From a virus, in IMG/VR virus record IMGVR_UViG_3300017987_000063, positions 26,972 to 90,971 of that record: DNA of 64,000 nt. One strand, 5' to 3'. The position numbers were made by a program, and so were the translations under genes. Below are positions 589-27,012 of the stretch, in pieces. Numbering within the stretch: the stretch's first letter is position 1; each line of letters opens with the position of its first letter. Under the pieces are notes generated by a model, which saw only the letters and a list, made by a program, of their open reading frames with translations, was not told where the DNA came from and made no database searches.

Positions 589-608
589 AGAATCACCTCC
601 TGACTATT

Positions 609-637
609 AGAATAGCATATATATTTAAAAATGTCAA
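609..637 (-). promoter_or_regulatory. sigma70-type promoter, conserved-spacer family
   Basis: TTGACA-17 bp (TTTTTAAATATATATGC)-TATTCT. Confidence 0.75.
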
Positions 638-3222
638 GTCCCTTGCCCTGTTTTTTGCAATTTGGCATAAATAAGTTTCCTGTTAAGCTGCCAGTCTTCG
701 CAAACCGGAAGTTCGGTATCCAGTATATCGGTAACCACAGGCTCCTTTTTCTCCGCATAATCCCTCAGAATCCTTCCCACTGGTTGCTCCACGTCCACCG
801 CCGGAGTCGCCATGAGCAGGGTATCCAGCCTCGGAATATCCAGCCCTTCTTTCGCCATCTGGTATGTCGCCAGCACAATGTGCGCCTCATTCTCGCTAAA
901 CTCCATCATGGTCGCGCTTTCCCCGCCGATGTATCGCCCGACCTTGAGCCAGTCATGCGCCGCCAGCATTTGCTCCAGAATTCCGACCTGCTCGCGCCGC
1001 TCCGTCAACACCAGCACGCTCCGGCCTGCCTTTGCCGCGTTTACAAGCTCTCCGGCGATCATGCGGTTCCTGCTTTCGCGCTTGGCTATGTCGGTAATCA
1101 AAGCAGACCTGCGCTTCTTGTTATACTCCCACAGGCCGGTATTTTTATTCTTGGAGCCATACTTTCGCAGGGTATAAGGGCCGTTAAACCGGATATAACG
1201 AATCTTCGGAGCCAGATACCGGACACCAGACTCGGCGAGAATCGGCCCAATGTGGGCATAAAGCAGGGGCATCATTCCATCCTTCCGGCGAGGGGTAGCC
1301 GTAACCCCCACCCTGTACGTTGAAGGAAACATGGTTATCACCTTCTGCCACTCCGCCGCGCCGTACCGGTGACAATTATGGGCAACTACGCCATTCCCTA
1401 CAAAGTTATGATTCCCCTCAACTGTCAAATCATAAACGTCCCTGCATCCTGCAGGGGTAATGGATTGAATCTGTTTTATACCGCATTTCGGGGATGATAA
1501 AAAGGGCGATTTTTCCGATGAAAATGGCGGACATTCCGGTTCGCATGCTAATATTCCAATGCCTTCCCGTCCAGCGGACTTCGGAAATAATGCCTTTTTC
1601 CTCCAGCCACGCCCTAATAAGCTGATTTTCTTGTTTTGAATACCCCTCAGTATGTAAAGTAACTTGCCCATTTTGAGCGGAGCCATCGTCCATAAACCAC
1701 CAAGCCATTCCTTCATCTGATATATTATTGAGCCATTGTTCAGTAACCCGCTTTTTCCCTGTTTTTCTGCAAATTTCCCAAATTTCTTCCAGAACTGGTT
1801 GCGTTGCAGATACCGCCCGTATAAGCGGCCCTCCCCACCCCCCATTTTCCACCTGTTTAACTTTGAAAGCAAGGCATGATAATTTCTTTGCCTTATAAAA
1901 TACCCAAGCCGCCTGTCGGATACTGTGCTGAAACAGTAATCGAGGCCCCCGCGCTGTCCTGTGGGGTCTATTAATACACCCATCTCCCAACAAGGTACCG
2001 AGAATAAGCCCTTTAATGCCCTTAATATCTTTGCACTCAATGACACCTCGCCGGTTATGCCCCAATTTATATTCAGGCCAGTCAATCTTTTTACACCGCT
2101 TCTTTTTATAATATTCCCAATCCAATTCAATACGCTCGCCGCACCCGCATTTACAATATGGGGCAGTTGCTTTCCATATTTCAATCCTTTCCACCCAGTC
2201 AACCCTTCTCCGTAAATCTCTCGTGTGTCCCTGTAACCGCCTTCGCTCCCTACCCCGCGCATCAAATTTGAACAGTGTTTTTCCACATCCGCAGGCGCAC
2301 TCAATAAGAACATTTTCGGCTTTAGCTCTCGCGCCTCTCGCCATCCATCTACTGTCAACACTCGATGCTCCGGCGTACATATCACGCTCGTCCCGTCCGT
2401 AAACTGGATTTTCAGGGTCTGCCGCTTTCCTCTCGGTAACCATGCCAATATTCTCCTATACTCAAAGGTAGATCGTGTTTCATTGAATGATAGCACTAAA
2501 GAGGCTTTTTCGCAACTAGCTATTGGCATACTCCCTTGTTCGGTTATAACCCTCGTATCCCCTGCCACGCACTCGTCAAAGATAACAGTCCCGAACTCCC
2601 TGAATAACTGCTCCGGATAGGCTTCCCTCCCCCGCTCGACCAGCGATTGAATCATGGCCACCGCGACCTTAACATCGCTTCCCCACTCGCACCTGTCCTG
2701 CTGGATAAGCCCTATTTCCTCCCGCGCAAGCCCGCAAAAGCTCTGAAAAGTTTCAACCCACTGGTTGTATAAAAATTCTTTATGCACCAGAACGACCGGT
2801 TTCCTGCCAAGTTTCGCCGCAATATCCGCTCCCACTACTGTTTTACCGAAGCCCGGCGGAGCGCAAAGGATGCCTCCATGACACCCGCTGCCTATTCCTT
2901 CATGAAGCTCCCGCAGGAAACTGTCCCGCACCTTGACCTGCGCCCCCCTGTGCTTCCACGCGCTTGCCTTTAGCTCGTCAAAGGTAAATCCAGCCGCCGC
3001 CCCAATAACCGTCTTATCCTGCACCCTATCCTTCGTGGTGTTCGCCAGTAAATCATATCCGAACACGCGGGGCAGACACAAATAGCCGTTCTCCTCCTGC
3101 CATCCGTAGACCTCGGTTTGCTCTTGGGTCATGTAATCGGTAATGGTGAACGTAAGACGGGGTTTGATTATGCTTTCGATAAACCAGCCTTTCGGTCGCC
3201 GCAAGCGCAGCCATTCGGCCAT
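634..3222 (-). CDS. SF2 (DExH, UvsW/ResIII-like) helicase containing an intein
   Basis: Motifs APPGFGKT, DE|CH, TATP and EGLDIPRLD...QPVGRILR. The likely start is MAEWLR after GGAAGGAG; the ORF track runs to 3429. Confidence 0.9.
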   Translation of the reverse strand: MAEWLRLRRPKGWFIESIIKPRLTFTITDYMTQEQTEVYGWQEENGYLCLPRVFGYDLLANTTKDRVQDKTVIGAAAGFTFDELKASAWKHRGAQVKVRDSFLRELHEGIGSGCHGGILCAPPGFGKTVVGADIAAKLGRKPVVLVHKEFLYNQWVETFQSFCGLAREEIGLIQQDRCEWGSDVKVAVAMIQSLVERGREAYPEQLFREFGTVIFDECVAGDTRVITEQGSMPIASCEKASLVLSFNETRSTFEYRRILAWLPRGKRQTLKIQFTDGTSVICTPEHRVLTVDGWREARELKPKMFLLSAPADVEKHCSNLMRGVGSEGGYRDTREIYGEGLTGWKGLKYGKQLPHIVNAGAASVLNWIGNIIKRSGVKRLTGLNINWGITGEVSLSAKILRALKGLFSVPCWEMGVLIDPTGQRGGLDYCFSTVSDRRLGYFIRQRNYHALLSKLNRWKMGGGEGRLYGRYLQRNQFWKKFGKFAEKQGKSGLLNNGSIIYQMKEWLGGLWTMAPLKMGKLLYILRGIQNKKISLLGRGWRKKALFPKSAGREGIGILACEPECPPFSSEKSPFLSSPKCGIKQIQSITPAGCRDVYDLTVEGNHNFVGNGVVAHNCHRYGAAEWQKVITMFPSTYRVGVTATPRRKDGMMPLLYAHIGPILAESGVRYLAPKIRYIRFNGPYTLRKYGSKNKNTGLWEYNKKRRSALITDIAKRESRNRMIAGELVNAAKAGRSVLVLTERREQVGILEQMLAAHDWLKVGRYIGGESATMMEFSENEAHIVLATYQMAKEGLDIPRLDTLLMATPAVDVEQPVGRILRDYAEKKEPVVTDILDTELPVCEDWQLNRKLIYAKLQKTGQGT
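1375..2571 (-). mobile_element. Intein (399 aa) in the helicase DECH motif
   Basis: Begins CVAGDT, has block B TPEHRVLT, and ends VYDLTVEGNHNFVGNGVVAHN followed by Cys +1. Splicing restores FDECHR. Confidence 0.92.
1430..2443 (-). CDS. LAGLIDADG homing endonuclease in an alternative frame nested within the helicase intein
   Basis: ILGTLLGDG and WWFMDDGS motifs, LHTEGYSKQE, and N-terminal CxCGCG repeats. AGGAG lies 9 nt upstream of the ATG at 2443. Confidence 0.85.
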   Translation of the reverse strand: MVTERKAADPENPVYGRDERDMYAGASSVDSRWMARGARAKAENVLIECACGCGKTLFKFDARGRERRRLQGHTRDLRRRVDWVERIEIWKATAPYCKCGCGERIELDWEYYKKKRCKKIDWPEYKLGHNRRGVIECKDIKGIKGLILGTLLGDGCINRPHRTARGPRLLFQHSIRQAAWVFYKAKKLSCLAFKVKQVENGGWGGPLIRAVSATQPVLEEIWEICRKTGKKRVTEQWLNNISDEGMAWWFMDDGSAQNGQVTLHTEGYSKQENQLIRAWLEEKGIISEVRWTGRHWNISMRTGMSAIFIGKIALFIIPEMRYKTDSIHYPCRMQGRL

Positions 3223-3299
3223 CTTGTTATCAGTCGCTCCTTCCAGCCCGCGCCGCGCAAGCTCTGCATCGCGCCCGACCAGTCCCCCGTAGCCTTTTC

Positions 3300-6206
3300 T
3301 TATGCTTTTGCCTCTTTCCATGTCACTCCATGCCCTACATCCGCAATCAGGGGCAATTTCAAGGTAACGCATGTCTCCATAATACCCTTTAATTCCCTTG
3401 CCACTATCTCCGCTTTGTCCTCCGGGCACTCCACCAGAATTTCATCATGCACCTGTAAAATCTGTCTCGCGCCCCATTTGGATTGTTTTTTAAAGAAATT
3501 GCGCTGTGCAATCTTGACCATATCCGCCGCGCTGTTATGCACTACCAGCCCATTTGCCATAAATCTGCTCGTAGGACTGTTTAAGGCATCATACATCCGT
3601 ATTTTCTCGCCTGTAAAAATCACCCTTTTAACCCTGTTACAATTTCCTTGTATATTTCCATATTTAGCTAGACCGGACTGCCCTTGTACTGCCATCCTAT
3701 TTTTCGAAGGGTTCAAAAATCCAATCCTTTTTATAAAATCAAGATTGAATTTTGTGGATACCTGCACCACTGTCCTGTCATCTGGATAGTGTCGGACGCG
3801 GGAGCGAATCCCGAAAAGTAACAACGCCTGCTGCACGTCCCTTGCCCACTTTTCTTTATATTTATGCTTTCCAAAAACCAGAGTAATAGCCTTTCCCGAT
3901 ACCCCCCCATCACCATCAAAAAGTCCTCTTAAATAGCCGGAAATAGCCTCATAAGATGTTAAAACATTCCACGGAATCCCCCTCTTAACCCCCAATAACA
4001 AAGCATCTCGCGCCAGCATAGCGGAATCTACATACAGCCAGTAAATATTCTGTTTTCCCTTCCTTTTATGTGTCCACTCTCTGACTTTTCCGAATGGTGT
4101 CAGGGCTTTTTTTAGCTTGTTTAAAAGTCCTCTCTCATGCTCCGCTACCAGCCAGCCGACCGCTTTTTCGGGGGAAATTGTACCATCCGAAGCCAACCTG
4201 CCCAAAAGCATCCCTAAAGTAACATCGTCTTTAATTAAAGAAAAAGAAAGCTGTTTATCGTTTGCTACCCCTTTAATCGCTTTCCAATGTGTTTTTCGCG
4301 GGTTTATAGGCCACCTTTTTTCAAATTTAAAACCAACCTCCACGCCATTGCCCGTTAAAAGCCTCTCTACCGCCTTAAACTCTTTTGGAGTTTTCCACAA
4401 TTTATGCCCCGCCTCATTTACAGTTAAAAAACAATGGTCTGGACTACAGATTATTTTATTCCCATCGTAAAAATCCACGATTACCTTATCCTTTAGGCCA
4501 GAATCTACTACCTCCACAGGCACATACTTGTTTCCATCCCACAATTCAATATTTTTTCCCGCCTGCCTTTCCATGCAAGTCATACCTATACCCCTTGCAA
4601 AAATACGAGTATCGCCCCCCAAACATCCCTGAATTATACTGTTAATGGCCTGCCGCTGCTCCGCCCATTTTCGCTTTCCTTTTAACTTGAGCCAGTCGGG
4701 GAACCTGCGCCTCCGGCCTGTAACCGTGGAAACATACTGCTGCTTATCGAGAATCATCGCCACCCGATCATGGAACCTTTTTACTCCTTTGTAAGCGGTA
4801 AAATAGCGGTTCCGCATCTCCACAGCCTTCTCATCCGTCACATCCGGCGGTTGGCGACTCTTGAGCCTGTAAGTGTTTAACTGGCGAGCCAGCGTCGGCC
4901 CGCTCATCCCGTAAATGAGCCCGAAGTTTACTGTTTTACCCTGCTGTCTGGTACACCCACAAAAGTCCCCTGTCCGCTGGTGTACGTCCTCACCCTTGAG
5001 ATAGGCTTCCATCAGCAGCGGGTCTTGCGACCAGTGCGCCATCAGTCGTAGCTCCAACTGGCTGAAATCCGCGCACACAAACTTATGCCCCTGCTTGGCC
5101 TTAAACAGTACCCGCAAAAGCTCGCGCTCAATATTCTGCATATTAGGGTCTTTACTCGCGAGCCGCCCGCTAACTGTCCCTGTGTGCAGGAAGGTAGAGC
5201 GTATCCGACCATCGTTTACCGCCGCCCACTCCTTCAACGGCAGCAGGAAACTGTTAATCATGTGGCTCTTACCGCGCCACTCAATAATCTCCCAAAATAA
5301 AGGGTCGTCAAACTGAAAAGCCAGCAGAACGTTCGCCGCCGTAGACCACTCGCCGGACGCGGTCTGCTTCATCCAATCCTTCGGCTTAAATTTAAGGTCG
5401 TCAAAAAGTATCTTGCTCAACTGCTGCGTCGAGCCTATATTAAACGCTTTCCCCGCCTTTTTATAAATCTCTGTCTCGTGTGCCTTGATTTGGGCCTGAA
5501 GGTCGTCAATCATGGCATCCGCCGCCGGAACGTCCAGCATAACACCCGCAAGCTCCATATCGGCAAGCACCCAAACATACTCCATTTCAAGGGTATTAAA
5601 AACTTTCCACAGCTTTTGCTCAACCAGCGCAGGGTAGTATTTATCCCATAACAGGAGAGGAGCCCGCACGTCCTCGCAGGCATATTCCAGCATTTTTTCG
5701 CTGCTGTCCTCAAAAAGATTCCCCGCGCTCGCCTTTTCATACCCCACCATATTAAGGTCAAGATGGTCTTTCGCGCAGGGCTTCAGGCCATGTCGCTTCC
5801 GGTTCTCGTCCAGCAGCCAGTCCGCTATCATGGTATCCCGCAACACCCACCCGATGTTAATCCCCTCAAACCCATGCTCCAGTTTTAACCGCTTGTTATG
5901 AATAACCAGACACTCAATATCAAACTTTAAATTATGCCCCACAACCGCCCTGTCGCAGGCGAATACCTCTTTAAGGGTAGTCATAGCCTCCAGCAGGGAA
6001 AAAGGCCCGTGTGCGGGTTTTAGGGCTACATAATACTGGTCTTCCTCTACCCCGAAGGCGAAGCTTGCAAGCTCGTTCCTGAAGGGGTCGAGTTTAGCCG
6101 CCTTATTAGGCCCCTCGCACTCCACGTCGAAGCTAAAAATATCGGCTTTAAGGAGCCGCTCCTTTAACTGGAGCAGCCCCTCTGCCGTTGTTACGTTATG
6201 TTTCAT
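3300..6206 (-). CDS. polA: Family A DNA polymerase (3'-5' exonuclease plus polymerase) containing an intein
   Basis: Exonuclease motifs FDVE and GHNLKFD, SGRLASKDPNMQN, motif A ADFSQLELR, motif B KTVNFGLIYG, motif C QVHDE. Confidence 0.95.
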   Translation of the reverse strand: MKHNVTTAEGLLQLKERLLKADIFSFDVECEGPNKAAKLDPFRNELASFAFGVEEDQYYVALKPAHGPFSLLEAMTTLKEVFACDRAVVGHNLKFDIECLVIHNKRLKLEHGFEGINIGWVLRDTMIADWLLDENRKRHGLKPCAKDHLDLNMVGYEKASAGNLFEDSSEKMLEYACEDVRAPLLLWDKYYPALVEQKLWKVFNTLEMEYVWVLADMELAGVMLDVPAADAMIDDLQAQIKAHETEIYKKAGKAFNIGSTQQLSKILFDDLKFKPKDWMKQTASGEWSTAANVLLAFQFDDPLFWEIIEWRGKSHMINSFLLPLKEWAAVNDGRIRSTFLHTGTVSGRLASKDPNMQNIERELLRVLFKAKQGHKFVCADFSQLELRLMAHWSQDPLLMEAYLKGEDVHQRTGDFCGCTRQQGKTVNFGLIYGMSGPTLARQLNTYRLKSRQPPDVTDEKAVEMRNRYFTAYKGVKRFHDRVAMILDKQQYVSTVTGRRRRFPDWLKLKGKRKWAEQRQAINSIIQGCLGGDTRIFARGIGMTCMERQAGKNIELWDGNKYVPVEVVDSGLKDKVIVDFYDGNKIICSPDHCFLTVNEAGHKLWKTPKEFKAVERLLTGNGVEVGFKFEKRWPINPRKTHWKAIKGVANDKQLSFSLIKDDVTLGMLLGRLASDGTISPEKAVGWLVAEHERGLLNKLKKALTPFGKVREWTHKRKGKQNIYWLYVDSAMLARDALLLGVKRGIPWNVLTSYEAISGYLRGLFDGDGGVSGKAITLVFGKHKYKEKWARDVQQALLLFGIRSRVRHYPDDRTVVQVSTKFNLDFIKRIGFLNPSKNRMAVQGQSGLAKYGNIQGNCNRVKRVIFTGEKIRMYDALNSPTSRFMANGLVVHNSAADMVKIAQRNFFKKQSKWGARQILQVHDEILVECPEDKAEIVARELKGIMETCVTLKLPLIADVGHGVTWKEAKA
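3534..4625 (-). mobile_element. Intein (364 aa) with in-frame LAGLIDADG endonuclease in PolA
   Basis: IIQG|CLGGDT...GLVVHN|SAAD, with LGRLASDG and LRGLFDGDG motifs. Confidence 0.92.
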
Positions 6207-6595
6207 GCGTTCAGTAGTTTTGCTACCTCAGAGAGCAGCGACTTGTCTATCGCAATGAACTGCATCGCCGGTTCGCTCTGTACGTTAATGGTAAGCACTT
6301 TATGCTTCGTTAGAGCCTCAACCACCGTTCGCATATCCTTGACGTTGATATAACCCTCACTCAACGCGCCACCAATTGATTTAACGGGAACTCGCGCTCC
6401 ACCAATTCCGGTCGGCGGAGTTATTTCTGTGCGACTGTAGTCTTTGGTTTTTCCATTTTCTTCCATTGGATACATCCTTTCAGTAATCCACTTGTCCGGA
6501 ATCGCCTGCCCCGGCATCGCCACTGCCTTTACCCTCTTTATCCCAAGGGTCTCCCTCGCCGACTCCGAGAGCCGCCATATCGCGCTCGACCTCAA
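6203..6595 (-). CDS. Hypothetical protein; true start probably internal (MEENGK)
   Basis: Fills the gap between SSB and polA, and its stop overlaps the polA start. Confidence 0.55.
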   Translation of the reverse strand: MRSSAIWRLSESARETLGIKRVKAVAMPGQAIPDKWITERMYPMEENGKTKDYSRTEITPPTGIGGARVPVKSIGGALSEGYINVKDMRTVVEALTKHKVLTINVQSEPAMQFIAIDKSLLSEVAKLLNA

Positions 6596-7142
6596 ACGCT
6601 TCCAGCGGCTTGAACATTTTCATAAAATCGAAGGGCTCCACATCCTTGAGCGTCGCTATATCGAATTTACCTTCGAAATCGAAGCTGCCGCCCACGCGAG
6701 CGGTCTTTTCGTCCGCCCTGTAAGCCTCATACTTGAGCCCCTTCAGACTGCCCCGCTTTTCCTGCTGGTCTCGCAACCACTTGAGCGTCCTGCTCTTGGC
6801 CGCGAATATCCGCTTGGAACCGGTGGCATGCTCGACCCCGTTTTTATCGGTATAAGGAGTCAAATCCTGAATGGTAATCATGCCGACATAATAGGGCTTG
6901 TTCCCTATTTTGCACAGCGGGCAACCCTGCCGAAGACAGGTAAAATAATTGCCCCAAGAGCCATTCGCGTAAAGATGATGCTCGTAGAAGCAGAGCGGTT
7001 CAGACTCAAGAAAAACTATCATCCTTTTTTCGCCTTCCTTGAGCCAGAAGCGAGGCTGGAATTTACCCTTTTCCTTATCCATCGCCTCATCCAAGCCGTT
7101 GTAACCGGTATCAAACCAGTCTTTTCCCTTGCCATTTCCCAT
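6480..7142 (-). CDS. Phage single-stranded DNA-binding protein (gp32-like, zinc-binding)
   Basis: PRFWLKEGE start, H..H/CxxxxCPLC motif, acidic C-terminal tail ending in DY, and position next to polA. Confidence 0.7.
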   Translation of the reverse strand: MGNGKGKDWFDTGYNGLDEAMDKEKGKFQPRFWLKEGEKRMIVFLESEPLCFYEHHLYANGSWGNYFTCLRQGCPLCKIGNKPYYVGMITIQDLTPYTDKNGVEHATGSKRIFAAKSRTLKWLRDQQEKRGSLKGLKYEAYRADEKTARVGGSFDFEGKFDIATLKDVEPFDFMKMFKPLEAFEVERDMAALGVGEGDPWDKEGKGSGDAGAGDSGQVDY

Positions 7143-7318
7143 CGTGTACCTCCTTGACCTTTCGGTCGTAAAATTTAGACCTTACGGTCTTTAATACTCG
7201 CCGGGTATCGGGAGCGCACCTGCGGGCCACCCCGTCCCTTAACACCCGGCGACCTACTCATTTGCACGACGAGGACTGGACAGGTACTTTCCGTGCAGGC
7301 CGGTGCCGCCTGTATAGA

Positions 7319-7347
7319 ATAATAACTCATATTTTCTTAAATGTCAA
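7319..7347 (-). promoter_or_regulatory. sigma70-type promoter for the SSB-polA operon
   Basis: TTGACA-17 bp-TATTAT followed by a ~170 nt structured leader. Confidence 0.65.
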
Positions 7348-7724
7348 GCCCCCTCCTGAAATAAATTCATCTGTTTATCAAGAAAATCGCCCTGCTTGAA
7401 TGCCTCATCATAAAACACCTTGCGGTCAACACTATTCCCGTTCGGATGCACAAATTCCTCCCCCCTGCAAGCCTCTTCATAATCATCGTGGCTGCTTCCA
7501 CAATCCATGCACTCCCAATGGTGGACGTGTTTACATTCCAGCTTAAAATATTCCCCGCCGTATGTCCATGCGGCCACCTCCATATCTGTCTCACCGCAAT
7601 CGGGACAGTCCACCATCCCTTCAAGCTCCGAAATAATGGCCTGTATGTCCTTCGGAATATCGCCATTATCCTGCGGTCTTTTTATGGTGCCCTTTTCAAT
7701 CAATCGCCATCTTTCCTTGTCCAT
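7344..7724 (-). CDS. Hypothetical Cys-rich (zinc-ribbon) protein
   Basis: CPDC and CMDC pairs, with a GGAGG RBS. Confidence 0.6.
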   Translation of the reverse strand: MDKERWRLIEKGTIKRPQDNGDIPKDIQAIISELEGMVDCPDCGETDMEVAAWTYGGEYFKLECKHVHHWECMDCGSSHDDYEEACRGEEFVHPNGNSVDRKVFYDEAFKQGDFLDKQMNLFQEGA

Positions 7725-9771
7725 GTCCTTCCTCCTTTGCTTTAAGCGTCCAGTAATTTACTCGATGCTTCGCCACTTCGAGATATTTTATGTATTTTTC
7801 CAGCCCGATATAATTCACGCCCTCCAGCACCGCCGCTATAAGCGTAGTGCCTGTCCCTGTAAAAGGGTCTATAACCAGTCCCCCCGGCGGGGTAATCATC
7901 CGCACCAGATACCGCATAAGCTCGATGGGCTTCACTGTGGGATGCGGGTTCCGCAGACACCGCTCCTCCCTACCGCCCACCATGTGGGTCTCGCTTTTAA
8001 GATTTTTACATACTGTGCAGGGAAGATTCCCAATCAGCCCTGCCTCGCGCTCGTCCCTGCGGGCTTTCGGGATATAAAAGTACCGGCTTCGCTCGCCGAT
8101 TAAACCGATGGGACAGTCAGGATGGCACACCCAGTCTTCAACCATCTCCATGCCATCCTCATCCGCAAATCCCTTCACCGGCACGTCGCCCAGCGGATTT
8201 TCCTTCCTATCCGAATCGCCGAGACTGAAAGATGTGCCCCCGCGCCCTGTAGGATAACCCTTATGCCCCGGTATTTTCTTGGTGCCCTGATATTTACATT
8301 CGGGATGGTGCGCCATTATCACGTTTGAAGGCCACCGGCCTAAATCTGCGGACTTGTCCAGCGTATAAATCAACCGACCTTCCGGCTTGTTTACATGCCT
8401 GTCTCCAAGCATCGCCCCGTGCGCCATTAACCCCTCCATCTCGCTGCGGGCATAGCTCGCCACCGTATGCTTGGCAATATCCCTATCTTCCTCATTCGCC
8501 CACGGAACCCTGCAGCCGTCCACGTTTATGCCCCCCGTGCCCCATACTATCACGTTCAGGAATAGCGGCCCCGACAAAGGCTTCCGCGCCAGCGTTATAG
8601 GAGTAACCTTAATGGGTCTTGCATCTCGAAGCGTGATAACATTCCGACCCGCAATAGATTCGCTTTGGATTGTTACTTCTAAATTCTGCCCCGCAAAATT
8701 TACAAGTGTGGTGAGTATGCTTCCCGCGATTTTTTCTATAACACTCGCGTCCGCAAAAAGTCTCTGGATGTTTGGAAACTTCAAGCCTTTTCCGTTGAAA
8801 TACTTTTCCGCATTCAACGCATTTGCACTCGACCCATTTGCTGGGGACTCTTCGGCAAGGATGATACCGCGATATATGGTCTCCCGGAGACAGTAGCTCA
8901 AGGTTCTCAACTCTGTTATCAGCCCTATCTCCGTTAATATGGTGGACTTCCTCAAATCGTGATAAAGAGCGGCCAAGATACCGTTCCATAACGAGACGAT
9001 GTTCAAGCCTATTGATGCCCCCTCCTGTAACCTGAATATATCCATCTTTTCGGACTTTATGGGTAACCCTTCCAAAAATTTTTCGACGGCACTCCATAGA
9101 GCAAAATCTGACCCTGCTTCTTCGCAATCTGTTTGGCTTGACTTTAAAATTTTGTCCACAAATTTCGCATGTAACAACAGGCATAATAGCGCCTCCATGA
9201 GATACGTTATATGTGCTATTATAGCATAAGGGGGAACAACTGTCAAGCCTTTAGTAGCCCATGTTATTGGCTCAACTGCGGGCTTCAACTGTGTGCCCCA
9301 ACCATCCCACCGCGCCGCTAAGTCCGTGCCGGCCGCCGTAACGTCAAGCTCGACCTGTGGCCTGTCCCCGCTGAACAATGTCCCTTTTTCGCTTTTTCCG
9401 AACGCAGTTCCAGCCACTTTGCGCTCCGCGCCCAGTCCCTTATCAATGGCCTTGCCTATATCTTCGCTCTTGGGATACCCCTCGCCGTAAACCCACACCA
9501 GCATATCCCGCACCTCAAATCCGGCCTCCCGTATCCGCCCCATAACTAAATCCGTCGTCCTCGCCCCGCTGAAGGCCATCAGGTGCGCTCCCGGCTTCAA
9601 CACCCGGTAAACCTCTCGCCAAATATCCACCGCCGGACAGTCGTCATCCCACACCTTGTTGGTTATGGAAAAGCCGTAAGGCGGGTCGCACACGCAGGCA
9701 TCCACCGAGTTCGATGGTATTTCCGCCAGTTTCAGCTTGCTATCGCCGAGAATTATCTTGTTCAAGTCCAT
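7696..9771 (-). CDS. N6-adenine/N4-cytosine DNA methyltransferase with a ~220 aa in-frame insertion
   Basis: DPPY catalytic motif, HPTVKP, and DPFTGTGTT SAM-binding motif (beta-class order). Confidence 0.9.
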   Translation of the reverse strand: MDLNKIILGDSKLKLAEIPSNSVDACVCDPPYGFSITNKVWDDDCPAVDIWREVYRVLKPGAHLMAFSGARTTDLVMGRIREAGFEVRDMLVWVYGEGYPKSEDIGKAIDKGLGAERKVAGTAFGKSEKGTLFSGDRPQVELDVTAAGTDLAARWDGWGTQLKPAVEPITWATKGLTVVPPYAIIAHITYLMEALLCLLLHAKFVDKILKSSQTDCEEAGSDFALWSAVEKFLEGLPIKSEKMDIFRLQEGASIGLNIVSLWNGILAALYHDLRKSTILTEIGLITELRTLSYCLRETIYRGIILAEESPANGSSANALNAEKYFNGKGLKFPNIQRLFADASVIEKIAGSILTTLVNFAGQNLEVTIQSESIAGRNVITLRDARPIKVTPITLARKPLSGPLFLNVIVWGTGGINVDGCRVPWANEEDRDIAKHTVASYARSEMEGLMAHGAMLGDRHVNKPEGRLIYTLDKSADLGRWPSNVIMAHHPECKYQGTKKIPGHKGYPTGRGGTSFSLGDSDRKENPLGDVPVKGFADEDGMEMVEDWVCHPDCPIGLIGERSRYFYIPKARRDEREAGLIGNLPCTVCKNLKSETHMVGGREERCLRNPHPTVKPIELMRYLVRMITPPGGLVIDPFTGTGTTLIAAVLEGVNYIGLEKYIKYLEVAKHRVNYWTLKAKEEGHGQGKMAID
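8609..9184 (-). CDS. HNH homing endonuclease with zinc-finger repeats, nested out of frame in the methylase
   Basis: EHRLVME...EVHHINGDRADNRVENLEL, three CxxC...FCSxEC-type repeats, and a GGAGG RBS. Confidence 0.88.
   Translation of the reverse strand: MPVVTCEICGQNFKVKPNRLRRSRVRFCSMECRRKIFGRVTHKVRKDGYIQVTGGGINRLEHRLVMERYLGRSLSRFEEVHHINGDRADNRVENLELLSPGDHISRYHPCRRVPSKWVECKCVECGKVFQRKRLEVSKHPETFCGRECYRKNRGKHTHHTCKFCGAEFRSNNPKRIYCGSECYHASRCKTH
9218..9246 (-). promoter_or_regulatory. Perfect-consensus sigma70 promoter inside the methylase insertion, upstream of the HNH
   Basis: TTGACA-GTTGTTCCCCCTTATGC (17 bp)-TATAAT with an extended -10 TG. Confidence 0.8.
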
Positions 9772-9961
9772 AAATACAATCCACCGTATCTGGCTCCAGA
9801 GACTCGCCACTTAACCATAAGGTTGCCACGCCGTGTTTGCAATTGTTACACCGCGTCCAACCAGTCACGCCGTATTGCGGACACTCGACCTTACCCCCTT
9901 TAATCTTTCGGGCTACACCAGCCGCCGGAGTTAAGTCTTGTTCAGTATCAGACATTGGCAC
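9740..9961 (-). CDS. Small Cys-rich hypothetical protein
   Basis: Tiles between neighbouring genes; GAGAGG RBS. Confidence 0.5.
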   Translation of the reverse strand: MPMSDTEQDLTPAAGVARKIKGGKVECPQYGVTGWTRCNNCKHGVATLWLSGESLEPDTVDCIYGLEQDNSRR

Positions 9962-10434
9962 CTCTCAAAGAAAATTAGCGGTATTCCGCCCCCGCACCGT
10001 AAATGCTTGACCAAGCTTCTGCCCCTGCAGTAAAGCCGGACAGGGCTTCTCAGCTTATTTGCCCTTCTTTTTGCCACATCCACGCAGCCCTGCGAGGGCA
10101 GTGTAGCCGTACACCGCACCGCCGGAGGCTGTGGAAACTGGCACCGCTTGATAAAATCAATCACAAACTCATCATCCGTCTTATGCTCACTCGGCATCCC
10201 GAAAAAGGCTTCCATCGTTTGCATCCAATGTTTGCTCCCAAGATAGGGCAATGCCTTGTCTGCCTTTATAATGCTTTTACAGTCCACTGTCAAAATAGCG
10301 GTATTATCAAGTTGGATTTTTACTGTATAGCCATTTCCCACATGGTTGATATTATAAATTCTGCCAAGCATCCCGGCGCACTTTCCCTCTGTTATCTTAA
10401 CCCTGTCCCCTATTTTCCAGACTTCACGCTCCAT
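9931..10434 (-). CDS. Hypothetical protein with an N-terminal KOW-like motif
   Basis: KIGDRVKITEGKCAGMLGRI. Confidence 0.6.
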   Translation of the reverse strand: MEREVWKIGDRVKITEGKCAGMLGRIYNINHVGNGYTVKIQLDNTAILTVDCKSIIKADKALPYLGSKHWMQTMEAFFGMPSEHKTDDEFVIDFIKRCQFPQPPAVRCTATLPSQGCVDVAKRRANKLRSPVRLYCRGRSLVKHLRCGGGIPLIFFERCQCLILNKT

Positions 10435-10720
10435 CTTGAACCTCGGCTACCACATTCTCCAATCTTCGCTTTAATTTCGCCCCCTCGCCGGACAGTTTAT
10501 CCAGCGGGATCGGCATAACCGAATCCCATGCAAGGGCAAAATATTCTGACATTGCCTTCCGCGCTTCCTGCGGGGTAGCTCCGCGTCCTAATATCGGCCA
10601 GTCCGCCATCTGGCACACCCATTGACCGGCCTCACGCTTAAACTCCAGCAGGATGGCCTGTTTAAATACCCATAAGCGGCTTTTATGCCGCAGGGCCACT
10701 ATTTTCTTATCCTGCTCCAC
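10424..10720 (-). CDS. Hypothetical protein with a possible HicB-like fold
   Basis: ILGRGATPQEARKAM resembles the HicB G.T.EEA pattern. Confidence 0.45.
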   Translation of the reverse strand: MEQDKKIVALRHKSRLWVFKQAILLEFKREAGQWVCQMADWPILGRGATPQEARKAMSEYFALAWDSVMPIPLDKLSGEGAKLKRRLENVVAEVQDGA

Positions 10721-10884
10721 CTTTGATTTATTTTACCGGGCGGCATGGTTACCTATTTCAGAAGGCTTTCACTCCAATCAATGTTACTTCATCCCGTATC
10801 ACCGGGGTAGCCTCGCATTGAAATTCAGTGAATCGGGCCGCGACCATACCTTGTTTATTCCTGTAGGAACCCGGTTTATACTCT

Positions 10885-10900
10885 GCGCAATCACTTGCGC
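10885..10900. repeat. 16-bp quasi-palindrome GCGCAATCACTTGCGC, copy 1
   Basis: Exact copy immediately after the stop of the 10902..11069 ORF. Confidence 0.85.
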
Positions 10901-10901
10901 T

Positions 10902-11069
10902 TTACAGTTCGGTCTCCACCAGCCCCTCAAGGCTCTTTAACACCGCCTCAATGGGGAGGTTAAGGCAGGCGAAGTCTTCGCCGCGCCGTAAGTTCACCGG
11001 CATCCGAGGCCCCTCATAGCTGAAGGTGCCGTCCATCTCAAGTTCCATATAGCTTATTGTCCACTCCAT
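10902..11069 (-). CDS. 55 aa hypothetical protein (not in the ORF track)
   Basis: MEWTISYMELEMDG...ETEL*, preceded by a promoter and GGAGGACAGG. Confidence 0.65.
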   Translation of the reverse strand: MEWTISYMELEMDGTFSYEGPRMPVNLRRGEDFACLNLPIEAVLKSLEGLVETEL

Positions 11070-11099
11070 TTTCCTGTCCTCCTTTATCCTTTTACTATT

Positions 11100-11127
11100 A
11101 TTATAGCATATATATTTAAAATGTCAA
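11100..11127 (-). promoter_or_regulatory. sigma70-type promoter, conserved-spacer family
   Basis: TTGACA-TTTTAAATATATATGC (16 bp)-TATAAT. Confidence 0.8.
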
Positions 11128-12060
11128 TACCTCTGGCCGGAAAAAGTGCGCTTTTTCCAATATTTCTCGCGCCTCTTCCATCGAACACTCGGCAGGGTCT
11201 TTACGGGGGTACAGATATGCCGCTTCTTCCACCGGAATGCGCCTGTAAAGGGCTTTTCCTATGCGCCCCGCTGCTTCCTTACCCGGCCCATCGTTATCAA
11301 GGAATAACACCACTGGGCAGCCCCATTCAACCAGTTTTTGCTCCTTCTGCACCGTAAGAGAGGAGCCCATGAGCCCTAAAATATCAAACTCAGGCAGTTT
11401 CCACTGCCACAGCTTTAAAACGTCCATAAGCCCCTCAACCAGCACAATCTTAGGCTTTCCTTCTAGTTTCCATTCCCCATAAAAATGAAGCCGCTTTTTC
11501 AGCCCAAGCAGTCCCTTATAGCGGGGTCGGGTCTTACTTGGTTTCAAGAGCCTGCCCTCCGCGCCCACGAGCTTGCCGCTTTCGTCCCGCACCGGAAATA
11601 CCACTCGTCCATCGGACTCGGCGATTCTGATACCCCATTCTTTAGCCGTATCAAAGTAAACCCCCCGGTTCAGGATATAATTCGGCACCGCCTTCCGATA
11701 ACCGGACAGAATCTCCTCCTCAAGTTCGGGGTCTGTGACTGATGGAGCGGCGACACTGCCCGGCCCCATGCGCTCGTTAAGCTCCACAAACTCCATAAGC
11801 TCCGGCAGTGACTTCTTACCGAACCACTCCAGCTTTCGCACCATCGTTCGCAGGTTCCGACCTTTATGCCCGCATGTAAAGCAGTTAAATGGGCTGGCAC
11901 CCCCTTCCACGGCCTTAATTCCCATCGAGGGATGCCTGTCCTCTCCATCTTCATGCGTCCACCGGGCAAGTGGGCACTCCATCGTGTACTCAGGCTCCGA
12001 TGCCCGTACCCGCTTCGCACCGATTAACTCTAGGAATGTTTCAATATCCGATGCTTTCAT
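11116..12060 (-). CDS. DNA primase (zinc finger plus TOPRIM)
   Basis: CP..H/CFTCG zinc-binding domain, VVFPVRD..G, VEGLMD, FLDND. Confidence 0.9.
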   Translation of the reverse strand: MKASDIETFLELIGAKRVRASEPEYTMECPLARWTHEDGEDRHPSMGIKAVEGGASPFNCFTCGHKGRNLRTMVRKLEWFGKKSLPELMEFVELNERMGPGSVAAPSVTDPELEEEILSGYRKAVPNYILNRGVYFDTAKEWGIRIAESDGRVVFPVRDESGKLVGAEGRLLKPSKTRPRYKGLLGLKKRLHFYGEWKLEGKPKIVLVEGLMDVLKLWQWKLPEFDILGLMGSSLTVQKEQKLVEWGCPVVLFLDNDGPGKEAAGRIGKALYRRIPVEEAAYLYPRKDPAECSMEEAREILEKAHFFRPEVLTF

Positions 12061-12109
12061 GTTTACCTCAATGTTTCACGTGAAACAATTGGAAAAAAGC
12101 CGTTTAAAA

Positions 12110-12445
12110 TCAAGACCTTCCGAGAATAAAACCCGCAATTGCGACAGGCTTTAAACCCACGCGCAGCATATTTTTAATCACCGCGATGGCATCCGTACTT
12201 AGACCCGTAGGATCTTCCCGCCAATCATGATTCCGGATCGCCGTACAGGTGTCTGCGCAGGCCCGCGCACCCCACTGGACGTTATGGTTGAGGAAGCCAT
12301 CTATCCACTCCTCAAGATGCCGGGCGACCCGCTCGGCTGCGACTTTAAGCTTATTTTGTCCCTTCGTGAGACCCACAGTTACATCCTCCTTCCTTCTCGA
12401 CAAATACGTCCGCCATGCCCAGCGACGCCACACCGTCACCCGCAT
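12110..12445 (-). CDS. Hypothetical protein; true start probably the internal GTG (VGLTKG)
   Basis: GGAGG lies before the internal GTG, and the ORF tiles upstream of the primase. Confidence 0.5.
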   Translation of the reverse strand: MRVTVWRRWAWRTYLSRRKEDVTVGLTKGQNKLKVAAERVARHLEEWIDGFLNHNVQWGARACADTCTAIRNHDWREDPTGLSTDAIAVIKNMLRVGLKPVAIAGFILGRS

Positions 12446-12752
12446 CCTCCTCCAGCAGGGTAAGGAAGATAAAGAGATAGTTTATCATGTCCACCACCCT
12501 GCCTTCCACCGGCTCGCTGCGTACCTCTCTATCGTTGAGCCATGTTAAAAGGGCATCGAAGTGTTTCAGGAAGTAAACCGCCCACACGTCAATCGGGTCA
12601 ATATTCCGGCCTTCCAGCCGCTTTGCGCCCTCCTTAAAGTTGTTATTCGCGTCCTTACCCTGCGTATAATCATGGCCTTTGGTCTCCAGCAGGGGAACGC
12701 ACTTCTGCATGAAAGTCTCCTTGATTTTTTCAAGCCGTGTCTTCGCGTCCAT
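12351..12752 (-). CDS. MazG-like / nucleotide-modification-associated (Nmad1/DUF1599-like) protein
   Basis: KGHDY...NF...KH...E..EGRVVDMINY pattern. Confidence 0.65.
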   Translation of the reverse strand: MDAKTRLEKIKETFMQKCVPLLETKGHDYTQGKDANNNFKEGAKRLEGRNIDPIDVWAVYFLKHFDALLTWLNDREVRSEPVEGRVVDMINYLFIFLTLLEEDAGDGVASLGMADVFVEKEGGCNCGSHEGTK

Positions 12753-12972
12753 GTCTACTCCTTTCCATTAAATTTTCCCGCATAGCCCCAATATGCGCCT
12801 TTTGCCCGCAATAGGGGCACCGAATATTCCACCTGTCCGCCCTATGTTCAAACTCAGTCCCGCACGTGCAGGCTATCTTGAGCATATTAACCTGCGGAGT
12901 CCAGCGGGCATCCAGTATCTTCATTTGACCCATAATCGGTAACCTCAAATTTGGTATTGGGGCAATAGGCAT
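12730..12972 (-). CDS. Small zinc-ribbon protein
   Basis: CTCG and CPYCG. Confidence 0.55.
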   Translation of the reverse strand: MPIAPIPNLRLPIMGQMKILDARWTPQVNMLKIACTCGTEFEHRADRWNIRCPYCGQKAHIGAMRENLMERSRHGREDTA

Positions 12973-13061
12973 GTAAAGCCACCGCCACGTTATCCTTGTT
13001 TAGCCAGAACTCCTCGTCTGGCCAATCCCATTTTATTTTTATCACTATTTTAGGCATGTTC

Positions 13062-13325
13062 TCACCTCCTTATGTTTTTCAAATAAGCCCTGCACCGCAA
13101 AAAAGGGCATCCATTCACGTCAAACTCTCCGGTAAACTCCAGCGCGGTCTCTATTGGCTTGGGACACTGGCCATTTTTATTGAAAATGCAATCCAGCATC
13201 GGGCAACGGGCAGTGGGCCGCCTACTCGTCTCGATTAAAATATCGCTGAAGCACTGTTCGCAATAAGCCGCCCCCTCTACCAGCTTATCCCCGCAGTTGT
13301 TACAGTTACCTTCTATTTCTCGCAT
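13062..13325 (-). CDS. Cys-rich hypothetical protein
   Basis: CNNC and CEQC, with a GGAGG RBS. Confidence 0.55.
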   Translation of the reverse strand: MREIEGNCNNCGDKLVEGAAYCEQCFSDILIETSRRPTARCPMLDCIFNKNGQCPKPIETALEFTGEFDVNGCPFLRCRAYLKNIRR

Positions 13326-13602
13326 CGTGTGCCTCCTGTATTCCTATGACATTCTTAACCCAATTTTTAAATCCATCCAGCCCTTTCACGAATATATCTT
13401 CCTGCTCAAATATAACCCCCTCAATATACTCCAGCTTTACGTCAAAATATCCGCGAGGATTCGGAGGATGTTTTACCCTCCAGTAAATCAAGCGGTCGCG
13501 TTCGTCCCAAAATTCCTCGCAGTCCAGATTCTCCAGCATGTAATCAATGGCTTCCCGTATCTCCGGCTCAATAATCAAGGGGCTCTTCCTCGCCGATTTC
13601 AA
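13306..13602 (-). CDS. Hypothetical protein
   Basis: Tiles downstream of dnaB. Confidence 0.5.
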   Translation of the reverse strand: MKSARKSPLIIEPEIREAIDYMLENLDCEEFWDERDRLIYWRVKHPPNPRGYFDVKLEYIEGVIFEQEDIFVKGLDGFKNWVKNVIGIQEAHDARNRR

Positions 13603-16138
13603 TATCGTCCGGCACCCCTTTTACAAGGCTGTCCCCCTCCCTGCCGACCAGCCCTGTCTCGGTAAAGTCATTATCCATAAAATTCCAGTTTAACAGGAAC
13701 TCCACAAGCTCGTCCTCCCTGTTTTTAAGCAGCCGAACCAGCATAGTCTTATCCGTCAAGTGGTCTTGATTGCGGAACAGGGCGAGGATAACATCCGCGT
13801 TCTGTGGCAGCCTGTCGCTCAACCCGACGTTCTCCATCCCCGCCCGCAGGCTTTTAAGGTTGACCTGCTTATTGAACTGGGCAGTAATCGCCACCGGAAC
13901 ATGCTGCCTGTGCGCCATCAGGGTAATATCATCCGCGATATTCGTAACCCGCTCCCACATTGAAGTGGCCTTTTTCCAATCCATAAACAGGTAAACACCA
14001 TCCACGAACACAATATCCGGCTTCGTAGCATTCACCACCCGCTCCACGTCCGGCACCGTGCTTACATCCTCTGCACCGATCATGTGTAGTCCGCCCTTAC
14101 CGGCCAGTAAATCCAGCGCATCCCATAATTTTTTCTCGTCAAAGGCTCCGAGCGTTCCCTTCCTTAGCCTGTGGTGTGGGACACCCGCTAAAATGGCATA
14201 AAACCGGCGAATCATGGCTATCTTGCTCATTTCCATCGTCACAATCAGCACTTTTTTACCCATCTGCCATGCCGCCCACGCCAGAAACAGCAGGAAAAAG
14301 GTGTTGTGGGCGACCAGACCATTGGCGACAAAATTATGAGTTTCCAACACCGTAAAATCGAACACTCTTCTTTCACCCACATTCTGTACCTTTTCCACCC
14401 GATCCCATATTATGTCAGGACTGCTCAACCATTCAAATTCGTGGAGTAGCCCCTTATTAGCTCTTATCAAGCCTTGAAACATTCTCCGGCTAACCCTTCC
14501 CGAATTGTGCTTATTCAAAAACTCGCGAGCCCCCCACCGCCGGGGGTTTGTTAGCCCCAAGCACTTTGCGGCCTTTGTAAATAGCCCCTCTCTGTCCGCT
14601 GGCCGAACCCCCTTATGTTTGCGGTTTACTTTAGCTATTGTAATGATTCTTTCCCTTATCTCTTTGCTTACTGGAACAGCATCAATATTTGGATTGCAAC
14701 TGGGATTTAGTTTCGCCAACGCCGTACTTTTCGGGCCGGGAATGTCGGTAAATACAGTTTTAAATGCCTCCCGCGACGTACTGTCAACGATAAACTCCCA
14801 TGACTTGAATTTCCGGCCATTACAGCGGCTTATTTTCACTCGTTTCCTGCCGCTGATCCCGAAACGCATTAACAGCTTTTGAATATCGTCAATCATTCCC
14901 TCCGATCCCAGTCCAATGCCTATGCAGCCGCGCTTATCGATATAACCATCTCCAGCCCATAACACCTCAATAAAGCGGATCAAAGTTTTATATGGAAGCC
15001 GGAACACCCCTACCGGCACTCTTTTTTCGGTCGCCTTCTCGTGCCCCAGTCCATATTTTTTCAATAATTTCGCCCTGATATTCCCTTTAATACCATAGTC
15101 ATATTTGCCATGCTTCCGCTTATGTATCTCACATCCGATTGCGGATGCCGCCTTTTTCACAACGCTTAAAAAAGCGGCACATCCGCTTGTAATGGTGACA
15201 CTGCTCCCTGTATAACCGCCTTCGGATAATAGGGCCGCTAATAATTCAACCTCGCCAATAGGCTGATTCACCGGCATCTCTGGCTCCGGCACCATCTTGG
15301 CTGCCGCTATATAATCTTCCTGCTGCAACTCCGATGCCTTGGCCCAGCCTCGCTGTGTCAAAAAGGGATGCTCCGGCGTTACTGTAATGCGCCGACCAGA
15401 ACGTGTTTCAACCTCGACACACGCCTTAATTCCGGTATCCAGATGGGCGAATGGTTTAACAGATTTAAACCGCCCTCCTGCTTTTTCAAAAGTTAGCAGC
15501 TTACGTTGCTCGTGAACAGCGTCCTTCGCGCTCGGCCACTCCCCCGTTAAAGGGTCATAGATAGGTGTATCTTCGGCAACGCATTTCCCCGTACCCGGTC
15601 GGGCAACTATCAGGATGGTTTCCCCCTCATGCCAGCCGTAAGTAGCCTCGTTTAAAGTCCCCCACGGAGTAATGATGCCGTCCGGCCCGCCGATTTTCTT
15701 GATAAGCTCGTACCTGTCCCGCTGGAGTTTTACCGTAGATTTTGCCATAACGTCCAGCACGATCTCCGAAGTCGCCCCGATCCTCGCCGCCGCCGTCCCG
15801 GTATCCGTCAGCCCGCGCCGTGCCGCCGCGAAGTCCCCCCTGCGGATTGCTGCCTCAACGCTTCCAATACCCTCCAGCATAACGCTTCGGGTCTCGCGCT
15901 CCAGCATTTTATCAACGTAGTACTCCAGAGGCTCAAGAGCTTCCTCAACCTCAAACGAGTAATCCGTCTTTAGCGCGGTCTCCGTGGGCATGGTGCCGTA
16001 TTTCTTCCGGTGTTCAAGGATGTGTTCAAGAGTTCTTCGATGGTCTTTGAAGAAGTCCGGCGATACCCCGCGCTCACTCAGGAGTTCAAGCCGGGGATCG
16101 GCCAGCAGTCTCGTTATTATCTGCCGTTCAAGCCCCAT
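13568..16138 (-). CDS. dnaB: Replicative DnaB-like helicase containing an intein
   Basis: Walker A ARPGTGK|T, TMEM, FVDG, AQFN, ADVILAL and KNRE. Confidence 0.92.
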   Translation of the reverse strand: MGLERQIITRLLADPRLELLSERGVSPDFFKDHRRTLEHILEHRKKYGTMPTETALKTDYSFEVEEALEPLEYYVDKMLERETRSVMLEGIGSVEAAIRRGDFAAARRGLTDTGTAAARIGATSEIVLDVMAKSTVKLQRDRYELIKKIGGPDGIITPWGTLNEATYGWHEGETILIVARPGTGKCVAEDTPIYDPLTGEWPSAKDAVHEQRKLLTFEKAGGRFKSVKPFAHLDTGIKACVEVETRSGRRITVTPEHPFLTQRGWAKASELQQEDYIAAAKMVPEPEMPVNQPIGEVELLAALLSEGGYTGSSVTITSGCAAFLSVVKKAASAIGCEIHKRKHGKYDYGIKGNIRAKLLKKYGLGHEKATEKRVPVGVFRLPYKTLIRFIEVLWAGDGYIDKRGCIGIGLGSEGMIDDIQKLLMRFGISGRKRVKISRCNGRKFKSWEFIVDSTSREAFKTVFTDIPGPKSTALAKLNPSCNPNIDAVPVSKEIRERIITIAKVNRKHKGVRPADREGLFTKAAKCLGLTNPRRWGAREFLNKHNSGRVSRRMFQGLIRANKGLLHEFEWLSSPDIIWDRVEKVQNVGERRVFDFTVLETHNFVANGLVAHNTFFLLFLAWAAWQMGKKVLIVTMEMSKIAMIRRFYAILAGVPHHRLRKGTLGAFDEKKLWDALDLLAGKGGLHMIGAEDVSTVPDVERVVNATKPDIVFVDGVYLFMDWKKATSMWERVTNIADDITLMAHRQHVPVAITAQFNKQVNLKSLRAGMENVGLSDRLPQNADVILALFRNQDHLTDKTMLVRLLKNREDELVEFLLNWNFMDNDFTETGLVGREGDSLVKGVPDDIEIGEEEPLDY
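14303..15583 (-). mobile_element. Intein (427 aa) with LAGLIDADG endonuclease in the DnaB P-loop
   Basis: GK|CVAEDT...TPEHPFLT...LAALLSEG...LWAGDG...GLVAHN|T. Confidence 0.92.
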
Positions 16139-26965: not shown

Positions 26966-27012
26966 TACCTTTCCAGAATTATTTGCCGAAAAATTGCAGA
27001 TTCTTGGGGAAA

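Follow-up and report, generated by a model that had tools for sequence, protein, structure and literature searches.

A probable ShiLan-type HNH homing cassette hidden in the DNA methylase gene of an uncultured phage

The methylase gene, its insert and the hidden nuclease

The DNA examined here is a 64-kb window (64,000 nucleotides, positions 26,972 to 90,971) of the IMG/VR virus record IMGVR_UViG_3300017987_000063, which has 90,971 bases. It contains a beta-class (N6_N4) DNA methylase gene that is enlarged by an in-frame, stop-free insert, and this insert holds a second gene, for an HNH endonuclease, in another frame. All elements of the insert and of the methylase lie on the minus strand, and their positions are given in Table 1. 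The methylase matches Pfam N6_N4_Mtase (E 2.3e-26), has its DPPY motif close to the N-terminus and FxGxG close to the C-terminus, and its family profile matches the solved beta-class enzymes M1.HpyAVI/DpnA-like, CcrM and M.RsrI. Judged from alignment with homologues, the true start is probably the ATG at 9771.

The insert is placed between the blocks GWGTQLKPAV and PITLARKPL. The initial annotation of this DNA had described an open insert of about 223 codons at 8602-9270. The open insert stands, and alignment to insertion-free methylases fixes its ends at 9273 and 8602, which corrects the exact size to 224 codons. Its G+C content is 43-46%, about 10 points lower than the 54-59% of the flanking methylase. 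The duplicated motif that had been noticed at its two ends (PITWATKGL and PITLARKPL) was recovered, with six of the nine residues identical, and the 16-codon target copies of the window share 7/16 amino acids and 19/48 nucleotides.

The 191-amino-acid HNH and zinc-finger open reading frame (ORF) that had been reported inside the insert, out of the methylase frame, was found in frame +2. It matches Pfam HNH_3 (PF13392) with an E-value of 1.1e-10 and 41.4 bits, the curated cutoff being 24.8 bits, and several PHROG HNH families match it too. Its TAA stop (8611-8609) lies 7 nucleotides (nt) before the downstream exon, compared with 1-2 nt in most relatives. The protein is laid out as zinc finger 1, HNH core, zinc finger 2 and a third, C-terminal zinc finger, the last being common to the window and to L008, L009 and L123 (L-numbers denote HNH loci collected from viral contigs, GTDB genomes and metagenome-assembled genome (MAG) contigs, and metagenomes). 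Among 16 sequences the invariant residues are C6, C9, C28 and C32 in zinc finger 1, C122, C125, C144 and C148 in zinc finger 2, and H62, H81, H82, N84, N90, N94 and H103 in the HNH core. The AlphaFold2 (AF2) model of the HNH protein has a predicted local distance difference test (pLDDT) value of 86, and the sole meaningful Foldseek match to it is I-HmuI (PDB 1U3E; probability 0.92, E 0.03). Comparison of the HNH sequence with PDB chains gave chance zinc-finger matches only.

Table 1. Features of the methylase gene and of its insert in the 64-kb window
Feature	Position	Strand	Basis or remark
Methylase ORF	7696..9810	minus	open reading frame call
Beta-class (N6_N4) DNA methylase coding sequence, through the insert	7696..9771	minus	691 amino acids plus stop; Pfam, alignment
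Methylase part 5' of the insert, residues 1-166, ending GWGTQLKPAV	9274..9771	minus	alignment
Stop-free in-frame insert (mobile cassette), 224 codons, residues 167-390	8602..9273	minus	alignment to insertion-free homologues
Left, degenerate target copy EPITWATKGL	9244..9273	minus	last codons give TTG of the -35 box
-35 hexamer TTGACA	9241..9246	minus	pattern scan, lineage comparison
-10 hexamer TATAAT, TGn extended -10 upstream	9218..9223	minus	ends 33 nt before ATG
Shine-Dalgarno GGAGG	9192..9196	minus	7 nt before the HNH ATG
Hidden HNH_3 endonuclease ORF, 191 amino acids, frame +2 relative to the methylase	8609..9184	minus	Pfam, alignment
Right, authentic target copy PITLARKPL	8575..8601	minus	AF2 core beta-strand, residues 392-396, pLDDT ~90
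Methylase part 3' of the insert, residues 391-691	7699..8601	minus	alignment, AF2

Two plus-strand ORFs at this locus (8471-8896 and 8999-9229) gave no credible family in the domain search and were treated as chance rather than as genes. Within the methylase part 3' of the insert, residues 443-566 are modelled at a pLDDT of 30-48 and include extra cysteine-containing segments that are absent from most homologues; they probably form a variable target-recognition region.

Kinship with the ShiLan element and spread of the family

A hidden, out-of-frame HNH gene has been described as the ShiLan domain in the gp65-type DNA methylase of ShiLan, Pollywog, Bipolar and others (Gosselin et al. 2023, PMC9957025; Arsenault, Gosselin & Gogarten 2025, PMC11855218). 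The published insert is a stop-free stretch of 202 amino acids with the HNH in the third frame and its stop codon in the last bases of the insert; its first residues, about 11, mimic those at the start of the downstream flank, and it has no intron or intein signature (PMC9957025; PMC11855218). An in-frame BLASTP search gave the authors nine matches, all phage, and the kind has been published for mycobacteriophages only; they regarded the methylase as dispensable in relatives and called the element actively homing (PMC9957025; PMC11855218).

The initial annotation had pointed to this similarity, and it proved to be homology of both the HNH and the methylase, at the same site, with the same +2 offset and with the target duplication. 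In tblastn, the HNH of the window is 42-44% identical (E about 1e-28) to sequences inside the methylases of ShiLan, Pollywog, Bipolar, Filuzino, OwlsT2W, Mantra and others, and 52% identical to one inside the methylase of the Cylindrospermopsis phage (cyanophage) Cr-LKS3, while the window methylase is 30-36% identical to those of ShiLan, Pollywog and DLane. In one alignment (A1) the inserts of the window, Cr-LKS3 and Pollywog fall in the same columns, where DLane and an archaeal-virus methylase are empty; together with a further one (A3) it places the insert at one junction, the empty alleles reading LKP-A-L-E-PITVARKPL.

The window and ShiLan share the insertion site between GWGTxLKP(A/S)x and EPxxxARKPL, the HNH in the third (+2) frame of a stop-free methylase frame, an HNH stop at the very end of the insert, and an insert start that resembles the C-terminal flank. 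They also share the order zinc finger-HNH-zinc finger, I-HmuI as top structural match and the lack of an intron or intein signal. Since every sequence-level defining feature is present, the window cassette is, by sequence, a divergent member of the ShiLan family and not a mere analogue. The differences are that its phage is an uncultured marine or sediment phage rather than an actinophage, that its HNH is only about 43% identical and has the third, C-terminal zinc finger, and that its insert has 224 instead of 202 codons.

Other known systems are more distant. Pacc40 gp60 (PMC11855218, section 3.6) likewise has an out-of-frame nuclease-like ORF in a stop-free insert of a phage methylase, with free-standing relatives adjoining methylase genes, but its description sets it apart by another methylase family, another site and an unrelated ORF. 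I-HmuI and the T4 Mob-type HNH endonucleases also combine an HNH_3-type core with extra DNA-binding modules, and a similar mechanism, in which the empty allele is nicked or cut and then filled by repair, may be supposed by analogy; unlike them, the window HNH is neither intron-borne nor intergenic, and lies within a coding sequence that is translatable in another frame. A cyanobacterial dnaX intein described as having an out-of-frame endonuclease (bioRxiv 10.64898/2026.09.14.751524) is similar in being a selfish element in a conserved replication or modification gene whose host frame is open. In contrast to inteins, the window insert is without a splicing domain and its host-frame residues are not conserved.

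In order to delimit the family an alignment-based query was needed, a search of viral contigs with the single HNH protein having returned one weak locus (L007). Alignment-based HNH scans of viral contigs, GTDB genomes and metagenomes gave 52 embedded loci with a complete HNH ORF (46 distinct sequences), which were reduced to 33 lineages at less than 80% amino-acid identity. All loci whose HNH is at least about 42% identical to that of the window lie inside this methylase family, always with the +2 offset; weaker HNH matches are free-standing or elsewhere. Three embedded loci are on MAG contigs (Betaproteobacteria bacterium, Pseudolabrys and an uncultured bacterium). Among 55 aligned top matches in the protein database, 27 have an insert of 185-261 residues at the site, and the empty relatives among them all read LKP-(A/S)xE-PIxxARKPL.

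In all lineages the cassette sits between two imperfect copies of a target of about 16 codons, LKPAxEPIxxARKPL, which agree at 5-10 of 16 amino acids and 19-32 of 48 nucleotides. The left copy keeps the left half and is degenerate in the right half, and the right copy shows the reverse. The left copy moves with the cassette, being nearly identical among loci whose exons differ. The duplication could confer immunity of the invaded allele to cleavage, could be a relic of target duplication, or could aid folding of the protein.

Some cassettes are far more alike than the genes around them. Those of L023, L024 and L025, and those of Pollywog, Bipolar and OwlsT2W, are 99-100% identical in nucleotides and lie in exons that are 63-80% identical; in the Cr-LKS3 group the cassettes are 91-96% identical and the exons 65-78%. 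Such near-identical cassettes in divergent exons imply recent spread, and the comparison indicates horizontal transfer of the cassette. This fits the published view of an actively homing element and widens it to non-actinophage lineages.

Two further arrangements were seen among the collected loci. Seven of them (L030, L032, L033, L137, L142, L148 and L183) have related HNH ORFs, 32-48% identical to that of the window, at a second insertion site in methylases of this family, directly after GSGFPKS and upstream of GWGTALKP, again at +2 and in a stop-free frame. In L132 (170-724) a three-zinc-finger homologue with 43% identity is free-standing directly after the methylase stop codon, and may be an intermediate between intergenic and intragenic residence; the free-standing relatives of the Pacc40 ORF are comparable.

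The open frame and the leader of the HNH gene

The methylase frame has no stop codon over the HNH ORF in any of the 33 lineages, while the third frame has a mean of 10.5 stops; the whole insert is open in 51 of the 52 complete loci. This conservation of the open frame in homologues is what the initial annotation would have predicted for an insert that is tolerated as a loop. For the window, 6.9 stops are expected in the methylase frame if the HNH protein is back-translated using the codon usage of the window itself, and none was observed (P(0) = 5e-5), the third frame having 17. Shuffling of synonymous codons within each ORF, which keeps the adapted usage, gave a joint probability of about 1e-15 over the first 14 lineages. 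The codon choice can also be seen directly: of the NTN codons that precede a purine, 80% have a pyrimidine as their last base in the window HNH, against 49% in the other genes of the window.

Close pairs of loci differ at HNH codon positions 1, 2 and 3 by 0.052, 0.019 and 0.122, respectively. The HNH third position is the most variable, and therefore the second position of the methylase frame is. This shows that only the HNH frame is constrained as protein and that the insert residues encoded in the methylase frame are not conserved. Translated in the methylase frame, the insert has no Pfam match. It is modelled by AF2 at a pLDDT of 37-50, beside a methylase core at 85-98 and just before the strand of residues 392-396, in agreement with the loop that had been suggested.

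The initial annotation had also pointed to TTGACA-17-TATAAT (9218-9246) and a GGAGG ribosome-binding site (RBS) before the HNH gene. Both were located, and the promoter is the sole exact match in the 64 kb, where 0.01 is expected. In the window, L123 and L126 the promoter agrees with the consensus at all 12 positions (12/12); 10 lineages score at least 10/12, and 17 of the 33 reach at least 9/12, a score attained by 0.3% of control positions. A -10 box of at least 5/6 is found in 18 lineages (background 1.6%), and in most lineages this hexamer ends 33 nt before the HNH start. The Shine-Dalgarno (SD) sequence is present in 29 of 33 lineages, 7-8 nt before a conserved ATG or GTG (background 11%). 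The distance from the LKP codons to the HNH start is exactly 104 nt in 17 lineages, and in these lineages of equal geometry the information content per position is 1.36 bits for TATAAT, 1.28 for TGGAGG, 0.71 for the -35 box and about 0.4 elsewhere in the leader, the spacer included. The Leu codon of KPL, which is degenerate in the left target copy, supplies the TTG of the -35 box. Because no HNH residues are encoded in the leader, and the methylase frame is under no constraint as protein, these conserved islands are best read as signals by which the HNH would be expressed from its own promoter and SD throughout the family. The conservation of the -10 box and SD across lineages thus supports the promoter of its own that had been attributed to the HNH.

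A perfect sigma-70 promoter and GGAGG in the leader differ from the published account of ShiLan, in which no RBS was reported and leaderless translation was proposed from a GTG 18 bp into the insert (PMC11855218). In the mycobacteriophage copies the homologous HNH start is a GTG preceded by GGAGGA, and the published upstream extension, open in ShiLan, is broken by a TGA in Pollywog, Bipolar and OwlsT2W. This interruption and the conserved GGAGGA-GTG favour the downstream start, and the comparison points to this GTG, not the published one, as the HNH start in mycobacteriophages. The start region of these copies was seen at L002:1500-1610 and L122:280-420; the published ShiLan HNH ORF has 195 amino acids.

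Interpretation and genomic context

The locus is probably a ShiLan-type hidden-HNH homing cassette that an uncultured phage of about 91 kb carries in its methylase gene, with the methylase read through without splicing. The cassette would consist, in order, of the degenerate target copy, a sigma-70-type promoter with SD, and the zinc-finger HNH_3 gene in frame +2, whose stop lies a few bases before the methylase resumes, the whole being seated between the conserved blocks GWGTxLKP and EPIxxARKPL. The HNH gene would have its own promoter for transcription and its own ATG for translation, and its product would nick or cut insert-free methylase alleles in co-infecting relatives, where repair would copy the cassette in. 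Neither RNA nor protein splicing would take place; the codon choice of the HNH would keep the methylase frame free of stops, the ribosome would read through, and the product would be a methylase with a poorly structured loop of about 220 residues just before a core beta-strand.

The absence of splicing, claimed at the outset, is supported indirectly, by the open frames of all 33 lineages and by several null results that also bear on the alternatives. Phage HNH genes are often carried by introns, and the insert could be a self-splicing intron that has escaped recognition, either similar to group I or belonging to a new class, with the HNH ORF inside and the motif duplication acting as guide-sequence pairing. 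The 5' end of the insert does resemble the 3' exon, a feature that the ShiLan authors weighed too (PMC11855218). However, a scan of 7500-10200 with Rfam 15 gave no family at E<=1, the insert RNA is not unusually structured (fold z-score -1.05), only 96 of its 672 nt lie outside the HNH ORF and its stop codon, and the duplication is stronger in amino acids than in nucleotides. A spliced insert would be free to gather stops, so that the stop-free frame itself argues against RNA splicing: with efficient splicing an open host frame would be needless, yet stops are avoided in every lineage. We therefore regard an intron as very unlikely. The insert could also be lost from the protein, either because it is a non-canonical intein or because the loop is proteolysed, which would leave an insert-free methylase or two associated fragments. 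Any such mechanism needs an open frame, which fits; the phage has three inteins, and the loop is predicted to be disordered and hence may be accessible to proteases. Nevertheless, the Pfam Intein_splicing model that picks up the three inteins in neighbouring genes (helicase, PolA and DnaB) finds no intein domain in the methylase, and nearly all alleles have Pro directly behind the insert, a residue that known intein chemistry does not allow at this position (PMC11855218). The lack of intein termini that had been noted at first is in line with these two results, on which the intein reading was rejected. The methylase-frame residues of the insert also vary, most of all at the second codon position, and protein-level removal in general is quite unlikely.

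Two other alternatives concern the products. The methylase may have been inactivated, with the open frame kept for another reason, such as avoiding polarity on the downstream co-directional replication genes, or the gene may be dispensable, as the ShiLan authors held it to be in relatives. Two relatives indeed have a broken methylase frame, L016 with a TAG in the leader (L016:2972) and L145 with three stops in the HNH overlap (L145:1-400), and the AF2 model is silent on activity. Against inactivation, both halves of the methylase keep all family-invariant residues (DPPY, the ARKPL block and the FxGxG region) in invaded as in empty alleles, and the core is modelled with high pLDDT around the insert; we consider this alternative unlikely. 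The HNH might instead be made as a fusion to the N-terminal part of the methylase through programmed frameshifting, as the two frames overlap on the same strand and about 22 further open codons precede the ATG in the HNH frame (an open frame of 213 amino acids). This is extremely unlikely, and it was rejected on the conserved start codon and SD, with the -10 box at its fixed distance upstream, and on the stops that interrupt the HNH frame within the leader of Pollywog and Bipolar; no slippery site was seen.

Several points weigh against the reading of the locus as a read-through homing cassette. The initial idea of a self-contained homing element is supported at the level of the family, through near-identical cassettes in divergent exons; recent homing of the window's own copy can only be presumed, as neither a close relative nor an insert-free allele was found for it. 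Its best HNH match is about 55% identical in amino acids, its closest methylase relative in the protein database is 34-40% identical, so that it forms an isolated branch, and the viral contigs contain no close relatives of the C-terminal part of the methylase. Likewise, over 6800-10800 the contigs of four sequencing runs contained neither a joint nor a variant nor an insert-free allele. Seven DNA runs among those listed carry the window DNA (sediment and seawater metagenomes), and no RNA run among them does. Read-through is not universal, given L016 and L145, which may be decayed hosts or sequencing errors, and the 33 lineages share ancestry and are not fully independent. Use of a promoter of the E. 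coli type (sigma-70) is inferred, and this consensus may not be that of the host. Finally, the likeness to I-HmuI is weak, Foldseek giving no match to the HNH model at E<=0.001.

The kind of element is already known, and it is far more widespread than published. What is added here is the same element, at the same site and in the same frame, in a marine or sediment phage, a cyanophage, many metagenomic phages and three MAG contigs. To the literature the comparison adds strict stop avoidance, selection on the HNH frame alone, conservation of the -10 box and SD, a correction of the start codon and the occurrence of the family outside actinophages. It gives quantitative support to the view that selection keeps the host frame stop-free and ignores the sequence encoded in it, and the conserved -10 box and SD before a conserved start bear on the ShiLan authors' open question of how expression of the hidden nuclease comes about. 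In genome annotation such nucleases will continue to be overlooked by gene callers, and the methylases reported will be oversized.

A broader generalisation, to which we give about equal weight for and against, is that the ShiLan-type cassette is a widespread third lodging for homing endonucleases inside genes that look essential, besides introns and inteins, with a leader made of target copy, linker and promoter with RBS, and with ends that aid folding. If so, the methylase would fold around a loop of about 220 residues with the help of the two target-like ends, whose conservation is at the protein and not the DNA level, the published model of leaderless translation would be wrong for the mycobacteriophage copies, and the element would be active well outside the actinophages, namely in cyanophages, in phages of marine and sediment origin and on proteobacterial MAG contigs.

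Regarding the phage itself, contigs of 91,130 nt without differences from the window over 6800-10800 were found in one sediment and one seawater metagenome from different studies, from which the window DNA may derive, and the genome may be essentially complete at about 91 kb. The methylase belongs to a minus-strand replication module (positions 600-16,200) that also encodes a helicase, a family-A polymerase, a primase and DnaB. By Pfam Intein_splicing, the helicase (ResIII/Helicase_C; 634-3429, minus) has an intein at residues 321-685, and inside it a LAGLIDADG_2 ORF of 337 amino acids (1430-2443, minus; E 4.7e-25) lies on the same strand in another frame, so that the phage has two homing endonucleases out of frame with their host genes. 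The dnaX intein of cyanobacteria (bioRxiv 10.64898/2026.09.14.751524) is described as a similar case. The family-A DNA polymerase (3300-6206, minus) and DnaB (13568-16138, minus) each have an intein carrying an in-frame LAGLIDADG_3. With the HNH cassette, these three inteins make four selfish elements in one 16-kb replication module. A near-consensus promoter, TTGACA-17-TATTAT (11/12), is present at 7319-7347 on the minus strand, upstream of the 6480-7142 gene. Outside the window, near the start of the virus record (C1:444-659), there is a weak second HNH-like match (E 7.9e-5) in an open frame of 897 amino acids.

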